Source of the DNA: Flavobacteriales bacterium
GTDB lineage: Bacteria; Bacteroidota; Bacteroidia; Flavobacteriales_F; PHOS-HE28
DNA: 64,000 bases
Assembly (NCBI GenBank): GCA_039931265.1
Contig: JBDTSG010000094.1
Coordinates: 17,448-81,447, forward strand
Direction of reading: 5' to 3'
The notes beneath the pieces were generated by a model. The model saw only the letters and a program-made list of their open reading frames with translations. It did no database searches and had not been told where the DNA came from. Positions 3,699 to 54,757 of the stretch are shown piece by piece; the stretch's first letter is position 1; each line of letters opens with the position of its first letter. Made by a program: the position numbers and the translations under genes.

Positions 3699-3849
3699 GG
3701 CTTTCCGGGGTCCTTGTTCAAATCGCGGCGCGTCAGGCGGTTAGCCCTTTTTGTAATGCGGATGTAAGGTGGTGCCGTCGCTTCTGTGCAGTGGATGTTG
3801 GGCCTGTACCGGCACCCTGGTTCCGTGGCGCGGGCACTTTTGCGCCGTC

Positions 3850-4035
3850 ATGCAAAACACCACGACCGGTCCCGAACAAGAACCTCTTCCGCCATCGGAC
3901 GATCTCGATCGTCTGGAGCAGACTTTTCGGCACTTGAAGGAGAAACAGGAGGCTTGGCGCAAGCTGCTTGAGAGCATTGAAGGAATGAAGAAAGGATCAC
4001 CCGAAAAACCCGAAACCGAACAACCATCGACATGA
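3850..4035 (+). CDS. Small hypothetical protein (~61 aa)
   Basis: An ATG-initiated sub-ORF of track ORF 3769-4035. Its stop overlaps the start of the next gene (ATGA), which suggests translational coupling. The sequence is charged and helical (…LEQTFRHLKEKQEAWRKLLESIEG…). Confidence 0.3.
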   Translation: MQNTTTGPEQEPLPPSDDLDRLEQTFRHLKEKQEAWRKLLESIEGMKKGSPEKPETEQPST

Positions 4036-6284: not shown

Positions 6285-6314
6285 AGTGGGGCGGTCCCCA
6301 TCTTCGCCGCCCCG

Positions 6315-6602
6315 ATGGATGCCCTGGACCTCTCCCGCCGCCTGCGCCGTTTGCGCCGCGCGGTGGACATGCTGCAAGCCGACCTGCGGCAGCGCTATGT
6401 GAACGAGCAATTGCTGGGCGAGATCGAGAAGCAGATGGAGCATGGCATCGCCACCGATGCGCGCTGCACCGGCCTGCGCACGCACGTGGACACCTTGCGC
6501 GAAAACACGCTGACGCCACGACCGGAACTATTGGTGGATACCGCTCGCGCCTGCGAGCAGCTGAAGTTCGCGATCGATGGGGTGGTGAACGTGTTGCACT
6601 GA
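6315..6602 (+). CDS. Small hypothetical protein (95 aa); 5' end duplicated at 1779-1925
   Basis: The ORF starts with ATG and lies immediately downstream of 5664-6284. Its first ~45 codons plus ~20 bp of leader recur downstream of the tail-fibre-like gene. Confidence 0.5.
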   Translation: MDALDLSRRLRRLRRAVDMLQADLRQRYVNEQLLGEIEKQMEHGIATDARCTGLRTHVDTLRENTLTPRPELLVDTARACEQLKFAIDGVVNVLH

Positions 6603-6679: not shown

Positions 6680-8290
6680 TCAGTCCTTCACGAACTTCAA
6701 CCGTTGCACGGGTGATCCATCGTTGGGCTTGAGCGTAAGCACATAGCTACCGGGGGCCAACGTGGAGACGTCGATGCCGCGTTCATCGGTTGTGCCACTG
6801 GCCAGCGCCAGCCTGCCCTTTTCGTCCAGCACAGCATAGGTGCACGGCGCGCGCAAGCCTTGCAAATGCAGTCGATCGCCCGCCGGGACCGGGTACAGCG
6901 CGCAGCCCGGCCGCTCGGGGCCCTCGATACCGGTGAAGGCATCGGCCAGCTTTGCCACGAACACATCGCGCACGGCCGGTTGACCGGCAAGGCCGGGCCC
7001 GGGATCGAACTGCATGGATGTTTGGAAGCCACCGGTAATGAACACATCGCCCCCCCGCAAAGCGATGCCACCGACGGTCTCCGAAAGTGGTCCGCCGCAA
7101 CCCTTGGCCCACAGCACATCGCCACTTGGCGAGAGCTTGGCCACATACGCGTCCGCGCCTCCGTTGGTCTGGAGCGCAACGTTGCCCAAGGTGAGCGAGC
7201 TGCCGAAGGTGCCGTTGACGTAACTGTTGCCCTCCGCGTCCGACCGGATGCCCACGGCCCGATCGCTGCCCGGCCCTTCGCCGCGCGTGGCCCACTGAAA
7301 GGTGCCGTCCGCACTATCGCATTTCGCAACGAACACATCGTAGCTCATGTCGCTCGGCCCGGGAAGCGTAAGCCCGCCCATGGCGATGGTGCCACGGTAT
7401 GTACCCGTTACGTAAGCGTTCCCCTGCGCATCCATGTCAACGCTTTGGCCGAAAGCATAGCCGCCCTCGCCTGCTTTTTGCGCCCAGATGGGCACCCCAT
7501 CGCTGTTGAGCTTGGCAACATAGATGGTGGCTTCTGGGGATCCGGCATCCAGGGTGAACGCGCCGAGGGTGATCGAGTTGAAGAACTCACCGGTGATGCA
7601 CAACTCCGCCGCATCGCCGGCGCAGATGCCATCGCCGAGGTGCGCAACGCCGTAGTCCTGGGAAAGCGTGGTCCAGAAAAGCGTTCCGTTGTAGGCGAAC
7701 TTCGATACGAAGACCTTCGAGCTTGAAAGGTTGAAGGGTGTCAGGTGCAGGTCGCCGGTCACGTAGATGTTGTAGTACCCATCGTGGGTGATGCTGGCGC
7801 CATAGTCGTAACCGGTATCGCCGATGGAGTGGGCCCAAACCGGTGTTCCGTCCTGCTCGTATTTGGCAACGAACACATCGAAGGAACCGGCGGAGGTGAG
7901 GATCGTTCCGTTCGTGCCGGGAATGAAGGCGACCGTGCCTTGGAACATGCCGACGATGGCGATGGCGCCCCCGTAATCGATGGTGATGCCGTGCACGGCG
8001 ATGCCCGGCCCGTTGGCCACGATGTGTGCCCACTGGAGCGTTCCGTCCGGAGCGAACTTGGCCATGAAGATGCCGTCCTCGTTGGGCGTGGAAAGCAGCT
8101 GGCCCCCGAAACCGATGGTGCTGTTGTAGGTGCCCACGACCACGCTATTGCCCTGCGCGTCCACGGCTATGGCCTGCCCTGCGGCATCGGCCGCACCGGC
8201 CCCGGGTTCGGCCCATTGCCATGTTTGGGCATGGAGCATGGATGCGGAGAGAAGTAGGGACAGGAAAAGGGGGCGTGGAGAATGGCGCAT
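6680..8290 (-). CDS. Secreted beta-propeller (SBBP-type repeat) protein with T9SS C-terminal sorting domain
   Basis: An internal Met gives a signal peptide (MRHSPRPLFLSLLLSASMLHAQ). Repeated GxxxDxGxxIAVDAQGNxYVTG units are typical of SBBP beta-propeller repeats. The C-terminus (…GSYVLTLKPNDGSPVQRLKFVKD) is CTD-like. Confidence 0.8.
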   Translation of the reverse strand: MRHSPRPLFLSLLLSASMLHAQTWQWAEPGAGAADAAGQAIAVDAQGNSVVVGTYNSTIGFGGQLLSTPNEDGIFMAKFAPDGTLQWAHIVANGPGIAVHGITIDYGGAIAIVGMFQGTVAFIPGTNGTILTSAGSFDVFVAKYEQDGTPVWAHSIGDTGYDYGASITHDGYYNIYVTGDLHLTPFNLSSSKVFVSKFAYNGTLFWTTLSQDYGVAHLGDGICAGDAAELCITGEFFNSITLGAFTLDAGSPEATIYVAKLNSDGVPIWAQKAGEGGYAFGQSVDMDAQGNAYVTGTYRGTIAMGGLTLPGPSDMSYDVFVAKCDSADGTFQWATRGEGPGSDRAVGIRSDAEGNSYVNGTFGSSLTLGNVALQTNGGADAYVAKLSPSGDVLWAKGCGGPLSETVGGIALRGGDVFITGGFQTSMQFDPGPGLAGQPAVRDVFVAKLADAFTGIEGPERPGCALYPVPAGDRLHLQGLRAPCTYAVLDEKGRLALASGTTDERGIDVSTLAPGSYVLTLKPNDGSPVQRLKFVKD

Positions 8291-49692: not shown

Positions 49693-50103
49693 TCACGGTT
49701 CATGGACGTCCCGCCCTTCCGTCTTTTTGGGATCGCGTCCTGCGCGGTCCAAGTTGGGGCGGGCCTCACCTTTTCCCGTGACTTCCTTCCCTGCTTTGCT
49801 TCCCTTCGGGTCGATGCCTGTTGAGTGCGTGGCGACGGGACTGCCCTCCCCTCTCTCCGCGCCCGGGATCTCCGCAGGGTACGGCCCGTCCTTGTACTCG
49901 GGTGATACCAACATGTCGTTGCTCTCCGGCCCTTGCGGTGTGCTGGGCGGAACGGTGTTCGGGTTCAACGGGCGGTTCTCGCCATCCTTGCGTGCAGGCT
50001 TCATCGTGAGCTTGTTTATACCCATCGCGACAAAGCCCGCGCCATCGCGAACCGGCCCGGTCAAAGCCACGATCCCGGTGTCCTTCAAGAATGACATTCC
50101 CAC
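49693..50103 (-). CDS. Hypothetical Pro/Gly-rich disordered protein
   Basis: The start is ATG. The region has no alternative coding explanation, but the low-complexity sequence leaves coding status uncertain. Confidence 0.3.
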   Translation of the reverse strand: MGMSFLKDTGIVALTGPVRDGAGFVAMGINKLTMKPARKDGENRPLNPNTVPPSTPQGPESNDMLVSPEYKDGPYPAEIPGAERGEGSPVATHSTGIDPKGSKAGKEVTGKGEARPNLDRAGRDPKKTEGRDVHEP

Positions 50104-50191
50104 AAGAGAAAGGACCCGCGTGTCATTGCCCCTTACCGCCCGGGCTGGAAATGATCAACACCGGACCGCAATTTGCCATGGCATTGGTGCT

Positions 50192-50539
50192 ATGGAAAAA
50201 CTCATCAACCGGCTGCGCGATCTTGCCGCAAAGAAGGATCGCTTCGTGTACGACCTGCGTGGCAATTGCGTGGTATACAGCGGTGTTGTGTGTCCCTATC
50301 GTGCCATAACCGCGGACGGAAACGCACAACTATCAGTGGCCATATTGGATGCCTTGGAACACGAGAGCATCCTTATGGGATCGCGCGGTATTGACGGGAC
50401 GGCGGTTTACGAAAGCTGCCGACTGTTCACCAACGTCGACCAAGCCATGCGCTTCGCTAAGAGCCAAGGACGGAATACTGTTTACAGCCTTAACCGCCAG
50501 GTGCTCCTGGAGGTGGAAGCACGGCCAGTGGCAGCATAG
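50192..50539 (+). CDS. Hypothetical protein (115 aa)
   Basis: This is the ATG-initiated part of track ORF 49727-50539 (MEKLINRLRDLAAKKDRFVYDLRGNCVVYSG…). Its composition is globular. Confidence 0.4.
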   Translation: MEKLINRLRDLAAKKDRFVYDLRGNCVVYSGVVCPYRAITADGNAQLSVAILDALEHESILMGSRGIDGTAVYESCRLFTNVDQAMRFAKSQGRNTVYSLNRQVLLEVEARPVAA

Positions 50540-50687
50540 TCCGATGGCGTAGGGAGGTATCGCACACGGCATCATTGTGGAGCTATTTCCATTCGCGCCA
50601 ACCAAGGATCGGCCACCACTCCCGCCCAGCGTGATGAGCCCCCCGCGACGCTGAAGTGCGCCTATGATAGCGAGCGGAGCGAGGAAA

Positions 50688-50969
50688 CTAGGTCGGGCGG
50701 TACTGCTTCCATCCGTTCATGATCCAGCTGATCACGTCGGTGGAAGAGGAACTTGAGGCGTAACCGAAGGCCTCGCGTGCCAAAGCCACCAAACGCTTTC
50801 CTTCCGGAGTAAGGTGAAGACCGACCCGTGACCGCTCGGAGCACTTCCTGCATAACTCGGCGTGCTGCGCGTAGAACGCCTTCTGTACTTCGGGGTCGCG
50901 TTTGGATCTGGGCACAGGCAAGTTGAATGAGTATACGTTTTTATGGGATTTTACGCTTGCATAACGCAT
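50688..50969 (-). CDS. Hypothetical small protein
   Basis: An internal ATG gives MRYASVKSHKNVYSFNLPVPRSKRDPEVQKAFYAQHAELCRK…. No family was recognised. Confidence 0.35.
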   Translation of the reverse strand: MRYASVKSHKNVYSFNLPVPRSKRDPEVQKAFYAQHAELCRKCSERSRVGLHLTPEGKRLVALAREAFGYASSSSSTDVISWIMNGWKQYRPT

Positions 50970-51614
50970 GCCCCTTTCAACCGTCCCGGTTTCGCTTCCC
51001 GGACCAGCATCAGCGTGTCGGTTCAGTGCATGCGCGCGGTGGGGCAACGGTCGTGTCGCACTAGTGTGTGGGACCCATCGGGGAATTCATTGCACAAGCC
51101 GCCTGGATGGCTGCATACCTGTTCCGGAACTGTAACGGTTCGGGTGTCATGTGCTTGCCCAGCGTCTTGAAGGCTGCGGAAAACCTTGCCCGCCAAATTC
51201 CGCCGGAGTGCAACCTGTTCCCCATGTCGGCTTCTCGCACCCACTCGGATCACAATGGCATGCAGGATGGAATGAAGGGACCACAAACCATTTCCATGAT
51301 ACCTGTCCCACCCTCCTTGGACGCATTCAAGCGGCTCATCGCGCAACAAAGCCTAAAGCCGCTCTACTCCGGCGACCGCATCCGTGTACAGCGATCACCT
51401 ATCACCACCATACGTGGAAAGGAGTTCGTAGTGATCGAGCAGACCGAGGATGGCACACTGACGTGCCGCAGCATTTCAGGCTCCGCAGTGTTCAAGCTCT
51501 TCAGCTACCAAGTACGACTGGTACACCGACCGATTCTGAACACCGTGCGAACCCTCTTCGCGGTGTTCGCCGTGTAACCCGAAATGAGCTAGCTCCCTTT
51601 TGGAATCCTGAGCC

Positions 51615-52090: not shown

Positions 52091-52816
52091 ATGAAGGAAT
52101 GGTTGCGGATCGGCACTGCAGGCTGGCAGTTGCCCAAGACCTTCAGGGAATTGTTCCAGGCGGAAGGCTCGCAATTGGAGAAGTACTCGGGCCGGTTCAA
52201 TGCGATTGAGATCAACAGCACGTTCTACAGGCTGCCGCGTGCGGCTACGGTGGAGCGCTGGGCCGCGGCGGTACCTGCGGATTTCCGCTTTGCCGTCAAG
52301 TTGCCCAAGCGCATTACGCATGAAGCGCAACTCCGCAACGTCGGTGCTGCGGTACATCAATTCGCCGATGTGATGGAGGCGTTCGGCGCGCACGCTGGCC
52401 CGGTGCTGGTCCAAATGCCACCGCGCTTGGCCTTTTCCTCGGTCGCGGAGGACTTCCTTCATCAACTGCACGAGCAAGGTTTCCCATCGGTAGTTGTGGA
52501 ACCCCGGCACAGCAGCTGGTTCACCGCTGACGTGAACGCGATGTTGCTGCGCTTGGATATCGCACGGGTGGCCGCTGATCCGCCGCGAGCGGACGGGGAT
52601 GGGATTCCCGGAGGGCGTGGGACCTTGGCCTATTATCGCTGGCATGGGCAGCCGCGTGTCTATTGGTCTGCTTACGACGACGCCACCTTGCACAACCTCG
52701 CCACAACGATCCGTTCACGCGCGGCCAATGCCAAAGAAGTGTGGGTGATCTTCGACAATACCGCGTTCGGTGCCGCAACGGGCAATGCACTTACCCTGCT
52801 CGGATCGTTCCCTTGA
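52091..52816 (+). CDS. DUF72-family protein
   Basis: …RIGTAGWQLPKTFRELF…YSGRFNAIEINSTFYRLP…FRFAVKLPKRITH…YYRWHG…IFDN… follows the conserved DUF72 pattern. ATG start. Confidence 0.85.
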   Translation: MKEWLRIGTAGWQLPKTFRELFQAEGSQLEKYSGRFNAIEINSTFYRLPRAATVERWAAAVPADFRFAVKLPKRITHEAQLRNVGAAVHQFADVMEAFGAHAGPVLVQMPPRLAFSSVAEDFLHQLHEQGFPSVVVEPRHSSWFTADVNAMLLRLDIARVAADPPRADGDGIPGGRGTLAYYRWHGQPRVYWSAYDDATLHNLATTIRSRAANAKEVWVIFDNTAFGAATGNALTLLGSFP

Positions 52817-52880
52817 CCGGTGGCGGTCGCGGGGGACCCGGCAAAACTTTAGGCGGTCATTAGCCATCGGCGTCCCCGCA

Positions 52881-53024
52881 CACGCTCGGCCAATGTCATT
52901 AAGTTAAGGGTGCCTAAGGCATTCTTCCAGCAGGTATCCGTCCGGTCCTGCTGGTAGCCGCGCGTGGACTATGGGTCGGACGCAACCACAACCGACCTTA
53001 ACTTAATGACATTGCACGCTCGGC
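52881..53024. mobile_element. MITE-like miniature element: perfect 19-bp terminal inverted repeats (CAATGTCATTAAGTTAAGG) flanking an 86-bp core, bounded by a 10-bp direct repeat (CACGCTCGGC)
   Basis: Read directly from the sequence: left TIR ~52891-52909, right TIR ~52996-53014. The identical decamer lies immediately outside each TIR, consistent with a target-site duplication. The TIRs are AT-rich in a GC-rich background. No ORF is present inside. Confidence 0.55.
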
Positions 53025-54039
53025 TGTCTCTTTGTGCACGCGCTCGAGTCTTCCCGATGGCGCTCTCAGTCCAGAGCCTTATTCTATGTCATATCCAAGC
53101 GCTTGATCGGTACTTCCGCAGCGTTGGTCATGTAAGGTCGTACCACGTAAGGGGTGCGGGCCAAAATCACCGCGCAGATGCGGTGGACAAGCTTTATTGG
53201 GGAAGGGCATTGAGAACGCTCATGGCATTCTTGCCTTCGGCGAGTTTGCGCTGGTAGATGCGCGAAGTTCCGTGTGCGCTGCAGGACACCGAGGGCAGCC
53301 ATGTGCAGCAGCGCCTTCAAGCGTTTGTCAGCATGATGTTCTTGCCACGCACCATGCCCATACGCAGTTCGATTTCCAAGGGGTGTGCCACCCAACTTCC
53401 GGCAGTTGGGCAACCGCATGGGCTTCAGCGTGCAAACCCTGCATAGCCACTGCAAGAACATACGTCACAAGACCGGTGCGCACAGTTAAGGAGTTGGTGC
53501 AACTGCCGCTGAAAGGCGGCTTGAATGGCGTTGTGAAGCCTTCGTCAAGGGGCTCTTCAAGCTCAAAACCGCGCGTTGTAGCATACGATGATCGCGCGAC
53601 GCTATATCACGCTGCGATCACACCATACGACGATCGGAAATGCCAACACTGCGATCGTGCCGTACGCGCGTTCCACATGCTCCGGTGCAGGCGGTGCGCG
53701 GTGGTGCGGTGCTGTGCGGCTGCCGTGCAACGTGGCGCGCAAGGCGCAAAATGCGCGGTAACACCGGATGTGGTACGATGAGTGAGTACACGATACTTGA
53801 ACTACACCGGGAGTGCATCGAAGCCATGGGGGGTAGCATCGCGCAGGCATCCACCAAGAACGGGGGTCAACACTCTCGTCACTTTAACCACAGCAACAGC
53901 TGTCGCGCGCTGAGAGGTGGCGAATAAAAAGGATGGCCAGGAATATGCCGCGTGTACGTGCGTGTGCGCGTTGCGGATGCGGGCGCAGGATTCCTCCCGC
54001 TCGGCTGAACCGAAAGTCGATCTGGGATAACCGCAGGGC

Positions 54040-54080
54040 AAACAGAAGGGCGGTGCAAATGCGCCGCCCTTCTGTCTTAC
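54040..54080 (-). terminator. Intrinsic terminator downstream of 54095-54757
   Basis: The CAGAAGGGCGG(T/C)GC-AAAT-GCGCCGCCCTTCTG hairpin is followed on the minus strand by TTTG. Confidence 0.4.
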
Positions 54081-54094
54081 GATCGGTTGAGCGC

Positions 54095-54757
54095 TCAGTA
54101 TTTGTTCACCCGACGCAGCACGGTGCCGCGATCCGTTGCGATCCGTACCAAGTAGGTGCCTCGTGCCAGTTCGGTCATGGGGATGGTCGACAACCCTGTG
54201 CCTGCACGCACCGCGACCTCCCGACCACTGAGGTCGGCAATGCGTACTTCTTCCACCTGCGCGGTGCCGCTGATGATCGTCAGCATGTCGTCGACGGGGT
54301 TCGGGTACAGTTGGAGTTCCACTTCGGCCTGCTCCTCCACGCCTACACCGGAGCAACCGTTGCCGGGCGCGCTGGTGTAATTGAATACCACCGCACCGGT
54401 ACCACAAGCCGTGATCATGTTGTTGGTACCCTGATCGCTGATGGACGAAACACTCTGCGCGTAAATGGTGTTGTTGCTGCCGAGCACGCCAAGGAAATTG
54501 CCCTTGTAGTAGATGGTGTTACTGCCACCGTTGATGCTGACGAAGGCACCGGATTCGATCCAGATCTGGTTGTTGCTGCCGGTGAAGATCTTCTGGAACG
54601 CATCGCCGCATACCCAGTAGGTGCCACCGCTGCCGGGGATCTGCGCGGCGCTGGCGTTGTTGATCACCGCAACGGAGCCGGGCACGGCGCTGGTGCATTG
54701 GGCAACGGCCGCTGTGGAAGCAACGAGGCAGATGGAAAGTGTAATGGTTCTGTTCAT
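54095..54757 (-). CDS. Secreted protein with T9SS C-terminal sorting domain (Asn/Gly-rich beta-helix-like body)
   Basis: A signal peptide (MNRTITLSICLVASTAAVAQC) precedes repeated GSNNxI motifs. The C-terminus (…LYPNPVDDMLTI…GTYLVRIATDRGTVLRRVNKY) is a clear CTD. Confidence 0.75.
   Translation of the reverse strand: MNRTITLSICLVASTAAVAQCTSAVPGSVAVINNASAAQIPGSGGTYWVCGDAFQKIFTGSNNQIWIESGAFVSINGGSNTIYYKGNFLGVLGSNNTIYAQSVSSISDQGTNNMITACGTGAVVFNYTSAPGNGCSGVGVEEQAEVELQLYPNPVDDMLTIISGTAQVEEVRIADLSGREVAVRAGTGLSTIPMTELARGTYLVRIATDRGTVLRRVNKY

Follow-up and report, generated by a model that had tools for sequence, protein, structure and literature searches.

A 144-bp segment downstream of a gene for a DUF72 protein, in the 64-kb window (the whole stretch of DNA that was analysed), raises the question of whether the inverted and direct repeats at its borders mark the insertion of a mobile element, and if so, of which family of transposases its ends are typical. 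An earlier note on this DNA had described perfect 19-bp terminal inverted repeats (TIRs) surrounding an 86-bp core, with a 10-bp direct repeat, CACGCTCGGC, directly outside both arms. Both structures were reproduced exactly, the TIRs through reading of the sequence as well as through a repeat finder applied to 52600-53300, which gave arms that are 100% complementary over 19 bp. The element measures 124 bp without the decamers and 144 bp with both of them (Table 1), and neither kind of repeat can be extended by a single base: the arms are bordered on the outside by C and C, which are unpaired, and the decamers are preceded by a/g and followed by c/t. The A+T-richness that had been noted for the TIRs is likewise evident, with 6 of 19 positions (32%) being G or C, against 54-64% G+C in nearby 200-nt windows. 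The core, with its 62% G+C, resembles the host in composition, and it holds an internal 11-bp imperfect hairpin (52924-52934 / 52947-52957). The empty site reconstructed for the 144-bp region reads ...GGCGTCCCCGCACACGCTCGGCTGTCTCTTTGTGCACG...

Table 1. Parts of the inserted element and its flanking duplication, in window coordinates.
Feature	Positions	Strand	Description
Left target-site duplication (TSD) copy	52881-52890	.	CACGCTCGGC; identical to 53015-53024; abuts the left TIR
Left TIR	52891-52909	+	CAATGTCATTAAGTTAAGG; 19 bp, 32% G+C; putative transposase-binding end
Non-coding core	52910-52995	.	86 bp, 62% G+C
Right TIR	52996-53014	-	exact reverse complement of the left TIR
Right TSD copy	53015-53024	.	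CACGCTCGGC; abuts the right TIR

The arms are not a product of chance. With up to three mismatches allowed, CAATGTCATTAAGTTAAGG occurs at two sites only in the 64 kb, where 0.00 are expected from 100 shuffles; the decamer also has only two sites in the window, with 0.43 expected anywhere in it, and its presence at both arm-adjoining positions has a chance probability of about 4^-10. A separate resemblance was observed within the DUF72 gene, where 52711-52733 (CCGTTCACGCGCGGCCAATGCCA) is identical at 19 of 23 positions to 52876-52898, a region that comprises the left duplication and the TIR up to its eighth nucleotide. This match is probably a coincidence, a rough estimate of its chance probability being about 0.06 for the size of the region.

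The sequence of the arms points to a known insertion sequence. A tblastn search of plasmids with a Clostridium copy of a transposase from this group led to genes annotated as 'IS4-like element IS1675 family transposase', and IS1675 itself, on the Lactococcus lactis plasmid pAH1-2 (locus L121 of the survey described below), carries CAATGTCATTAAGTTAAGG at both of its ends with 0 mismatches and is flanked there by the 10-bp duplication GAGTATACTC. The two elements are alike in having the identical 19 bp at both ends and a duplication of 10 bp, but IS1675 extends over 1604 bp from end to end, encodes a 439-aa DDE transposase and has a TIR that reaches 26 bp, whereas the window element is non-coding, 124 bp long, and has 19 bp only in common with it. 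The wider affiliation is with the IS4 subgroup of the IS4 family, for which the end consensus is -AATR--------WTW---- and the direct repeats are 10-13 bp long (PMC2266710; De Palmenaer et al. 2008). CAATGTCATTAAGTTAAGG agrees with this consensus, reading AATG at positions 2-5 and TTA at positions 14-16, and the 10-bp duplication in the window lies within the subgroup's range. The type element of the subgroup, IS4 (insG) of E. coli K-12, has one end, TAATGCCGATCAGTTAAGG, with 14 of 19 positions in common with the window TIR and another, TAATGCCAGTCAGTTAAGC, with fewer; its ends likewise hold AATG and an AGTTAAG block and fit -AATR--------WTW----, and its K-12 copy lies in a duplication of 12 bp, long like that of the window. 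IS4 differs in being an autonomous element of 1426 bp, whose InsG protein is approximately 21-22% identical to the transposases of elements that have the present TIR. Assignment to the IS231 subgroup was considered and rejected: the ends of IS231 start with CAT, and the window end reads CAAT and fits -AATR--------WTW---- (PMC2266710).

The distribution of the end was surveyed by scanning one genome per bacterial or archaeal species for exact matches to the 19-mer, which returned at least 120 loci in at least nine phyla, where about four matches would be expected by chance in the sequence scanned. Most of the loci listed are in Bacteroidota, the other phyla and groups being Chloroflexota, Bacillota, Pseudomonadota, Cyanobacteria, Planctomycetota, Spirochaetota, Deferribacteres and Synergistia, and CAATGTCATTAAGTTAAGG forms at least one end at each of the at least 120 loci listed. 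When each match was paired with its nearest inverted partner at up to three mismatches, 66 bounded elements were obtained among the listed loci, in two classes of length. The full-length class (13 of the 66 paired elements) covers 1433-1697 bp, and unnamed relatives of IS1675 are known from it in Bacteroidota, Bacillota and Chloroflexota. All twelve of its members that were examined hold ORFs for IS4-family DDE transposases, intact or decayed, the longest ORF measuring 141-449 aa (390-449 aa in eight of the twelve, the rest being truncated). The one ORF that was scanned against family libraries, that of locus L002, matched NF033592 'IS4 family transposase' above the cut-off (E = 2e-41) as well as PF01609 (DDE_Tnp_1). 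Exact duplications of 9-10 bp flank nine of the ten full-length copies with readable flanks among the listed loci. The earlier note had proposed to look for a cognate transposase recognizing these TIRs. The family of such a transposase was found: it is the IS4 family, members of which are encoded inside full-length elements with the identical 19-bp end, IS1675 included.

The short class comprises the other 53 of the 66 paired elements among the listed loci, all of them non-coding and 72-714 bp in length, with dozens in the range of 72-361 bp; five are of 123-125 bp and so match the window element in size. Exact 9-10-bp duplications were found in 19 of the 52 that could be evaluated, and 11 more are one mismatch off; the cores of these short elements represent numerous sequence families, unrelated to one another. 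Direct evidence for the movement of short elements bounded in this way comes from locus L054, in a Mucilaginibacter MAG, where two 198-bp MITEs (3761-3958 and 6918-7115), 99.4% identical and approximately 3 kb apart, have different flanks and lie in different 10-bp duplications; the pair indicates recent MITE transposition. Inside the end, positions 20-25 are 70-83% A+T in the sampled elements, the invariant block being 19 bp. The exact 19-mer is also present in 12 viral contigs (L125-L136). In one of these (L133, IMGVR_UViG_3300027728_001619, 985-1680), a 215-bp MITE with the same ends and the duplication GTGTACGGAT is present twice because the surrounding 448 bp are tandemly duplicated.

The window element is typical in its size, 124 bp where MITEs measure about 50-500 bp, and in the length of its duplication, and it has no coding capacity. 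The sole ORF that touches it (52964-53257) extends out into the flank, and a YREK-motif DDE transposase is absent from the element, as would be expected of a non-autonomous derivative. Neither was a transposase relic found in the 64-kb window: tblastn with 12 family transposases gave a best E of 0.014, and a profile HMM derived from ten transposases of the family, including IS1675 and E. coli InsG, gave a best E of 2 against the six-frame translation with no filters, both of these matches lying outside the region of the element. Further copies were looked for by several routes. The window holds no second copy of the TIR at up to three mismatches, and a repeat search over its whole length gave no related repeat. 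The core gave short chance matches only when compared with the at least 120 genome loci and the 12 viral loci sharing this TIR, and its best local score against the rest of the window was 27, compared with 26.9 +/- 2.8 in shuffles; small collinear matches to 53224-53264 are not significant, 26 of 500 shuffles being as good. Scans of JGI metagenome contigs for the two exact TIR/core junctions returned 0 matches for one and a single match for the other (L124), which was rejected as a chance 21-mer, the TIR being absent from what is an unrelated, AT-rich contig. The element is thus seen once in the 64-kb window; multi-copy status is normally part of the definition of a MITE.

The ends, the length of the duplication and the lack of coding capacity together identify the element as a non-autonomous member of the IS1675-like group, and we consider it very probable that it is a MITE insertion bounded by the recognition ends of an IS1675-like insertion sequence (IS4 family, IS4 subgroup). 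This bears out the earlier description of the element as a non-autonomous DNA transposon, given that its ends are those of IS1675, its duplication is of family length and no similarity to a transposase is present. The duplication can also be read as a mark of transposition, as had been suggested, its 10 bp comparing with 9-10 bp in the family and 10 bp in IS1675. By analogy with better-studied relatives, mobilization would have occurred in trans: a DDE transposase from a full-length relative elsewhere in the same cell would bind both 19-bp ends and synapse them, and the element would then be excised by the cut-and-paste route of the IS4 family, presumably through DNA hairpin intermediates. Excision by way of such hairpins is the route taken by Tn5/IS50 and Tn10/IS10. 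The element would have been inserted at a staggered 10-bp cut in CACGCTCGGC, 65 bp past the end of the DUF72 gene, and repair of the stagger would have generated the flanking direct repeat. The perfect state of both the arms and the duplication suggests that the insertion is fairly recent, and that the element could still be mobilized. Since it is located between convergent genes, the insertion was most likely neutral for the host.

The explanation that comes closest to this one is that the short form never transposed: a full-length IS1675-like insertion sequence would have inserted at this site, made the 10-bp duplication and later lost its interior. It is accepted that MITEs originate as deletion derivatives (PMC9769881), and such a history would suit the presence of a single copy in the window and the lack of a second copy of the core in the listed loci, the viral loci or the metagenome scans. 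We nevertheless regard it as unlikely. The core retains no trace of a transposase, nor of subterminal sequence from full-length members; at 62% G+C, and starting with G or T, it contrasts with the 70-83% A+T found at positions 20-25 of the sampled elements; and elements of 123-125 bp that have duplications of their own are common in the family.

Readings that do without transposition fare considerably worse. It had been proposed, as an alternative, that the segment is a long structured RNA hairpin; it could then be a structured non-coding RNA or a terminator following the DUF72 gene, with the decamers there by coincidence. The fold of the 144 nt is indeed much more stable than that of shuffles, whichever strand is taken (z = -5.9 and -5.5), and the element lies 65 bp past a stop codon, but this stability is due to the 19-bp arms, whose sequence is known as the end of a transposon. 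An RNA also leaves unexplained the exact 10-bp flanking repeat of family-typical length, and a terminator finds little to recommend it, there being no T-run after the stem and nothing at the element in a promoter/terminator scan. Rfam gave 0 matches at the gathering score when the entire window was searched, and a scan of 52700-54200 at E <= 1 gave none that overlaps the element, so that the RNA-hairpin alternative is left without support and appears extremely improbable. Also excluded is the coincidence of an inverted and a direct repeat that both arose by chance, to which the single occurrence of the element in the window lends something, and nothing further does: none of the 100 shuffles gave any 19-mer match at three mismatches or fewer, and the same 19-mer ends IS1675 and more than 100 elements elsewhere. 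An integron attC site, judged by inspection against the outer core sites RYYYAAC ... GTTRRRY that bound its imperfect palindrome, was rejected as well; GTTAAGG and CCTTAAC are found at the inner arm ends, in reverse order and each one position off consensus.

If the element is taken as a MITE with IS1675-like ends, its closest parallels in organization are short elements that depend on other insertion sequences. These include MITECca01 of Cardinium, derived from IS982 (PMC9769881), BrickBuilt/MITEPgRS of Porphyromonas gingivalis, derived from IS5 (PMC4596501), and MIC231 of Bacillus cereus, a MITE of the IS231 subgroup of IS4 (PMC2266710). All three share the architecture of the window element, in that they are short and non-coding, carry the TIRs of a resident insertion sequence and lie in the duplication characteristic of that family, and they have in common with it a presumed biology of mobilization in trans. 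They differ in their parent family and in their ends, and also in that they have been defined from many copies per genome, as opposed to one copy here. A further comparison can be made with Tn5/IS50, also of the IS4 family, whose outside and inside ends are 19 bp long, like the invariant block described here. In that system the 19-bp end suffices in cis for the transposase, and the duplications are of 9 bp. The Tn5/IS50 ends are unrelated in sequence to the window TIR, IS50-type ends starting with CT/CW (PMC2266710).

Bacteroidota are extremely rich in MITEs; a preprint reports 81,380 unique ones. In the open-access literature no paper printing the string CAATGTCATTAAGTTAAGG was found, and the MITE of the window has probably not been described so far. 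It is possible, although on balance doubtful, that the element is one of a very large and apparently undescribed pan-bacterial set of MITEs that share a frozen 19-bp end and nothing else, and whose transposases have diverged to 22-30% identity. The transposases inside full-length copies are 22-65% identical to each other. It was also observed that the 19-bp end is the same at every base across at least nine phyla and the 12 viral contigs (at least 120 loci, in addition to IS1675), and that the MITE cores bounded by CAATGTCATTAAGTTAAGG are mutually unrelated; the apparent invariance of the end may in part be an effect of having queried with the exact 19-mer. If the end is truly invariant, any IS1675-like transposase could cross-mobilize any such MITE after horizontal transfer, and the end would be constrained by more than its pairwise co-evolution with the cognate transposase. 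For the lineage at hand, an uncultured, high-G+C member of the Flavobacteriales, the element indicates that an IS1675-like transposase has been active in it or has passed through it. For annotation CAATGTCATTAAGTTAAGG is mildly useful, as a simple and highly specific marker, across many phyla, of insertion sequences like IS1675 and of the MITEs that go with them. For the host genome itself the element matters little, being an ordinary, neutral-looking insertion of mobile DNA of a well-known kind.

The sites at which members of the family are inserted display a weak, symmetric preference, their flanks favouring C at positions -9/-8 and G at -3/-2, and the CACGCTCGGC of the window has three of the four preferred flank bases. 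The exact duplications of the family are more palindromic than shuffles, with a mean of 2.33 complementary pairs out of five, compared with 1.39 +/- 0.22; the window TSD, with two of five pairs, ranks below many others of the family in this respect. Examples of exact 10-bp duplications are AGCAATTGCT at L027, CCCTTTAGGG at L029, GGCTTTAGCC at L054 and GACTTTAGTC at L046, and several insertions of the family are located in stem-loops of the CCCTTCGGG type.

The gene upstream of the insertion encodes a DUF72 protein, annotated with 256 aa, on the + strand (PF01904, E = 4.7e-57), and its stop codon lies 65 bp before the left repeat. The next gene, approximately 1.07 kb away, is convergent, on the - strand, and encodes a secreted protein with a type IX secretion sorting domain. 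Of the setting given earlier, namely a DUF72 gene on one side and a decayed region on the other, the first half is borne out by the PF01904 match, whereas 53025-54094 proved to be merely free of genes and of Pfam matches: no gene was called in these approximately 1.07 kb, and their ORFs gave no Pfam match. For an intergenic region in bacteria, this gap is of unusual length. At 54029-54088 it contains an imperfect hairpin of 29 nt, just outside the convergent type IX secretion-tail gene at its 3' end. On the other side, 49727-51600 was observed to hold only short or unsupported ORFs; the only one of them that was scanned (49727-50539) gave no Pfam match, and the Logan gene calls for this stretch list no Pfam family. 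The scarcity of supported ORFs there places the MITE in a gene-poor neighbourhood. The closest relative of the DUF72 protein beyond the exact one is only 61-62% identical to it. The exact protein is encoded on a Logan contig from run SRR26386599 on which the spacing between the flanking genes is the same, implying that this contig carries the element as well.

Two further repeats were observed elsewhere in the window. A direct repeat of approximately 150 nt (1780-1929 and 6296-6446), with 86-91% identity between copies that are 4.5 kb apart, lies in both instances just after a long ORF, and could represent a shared gene tail or a terminator region. Within a long ORF, at 86-1026, a 23-nt motif (AACACCACCGGATC...AACAC) occurs ten times at intervals that are multiples of 51 nt, an array that looks like a 17-residue protein repeat.
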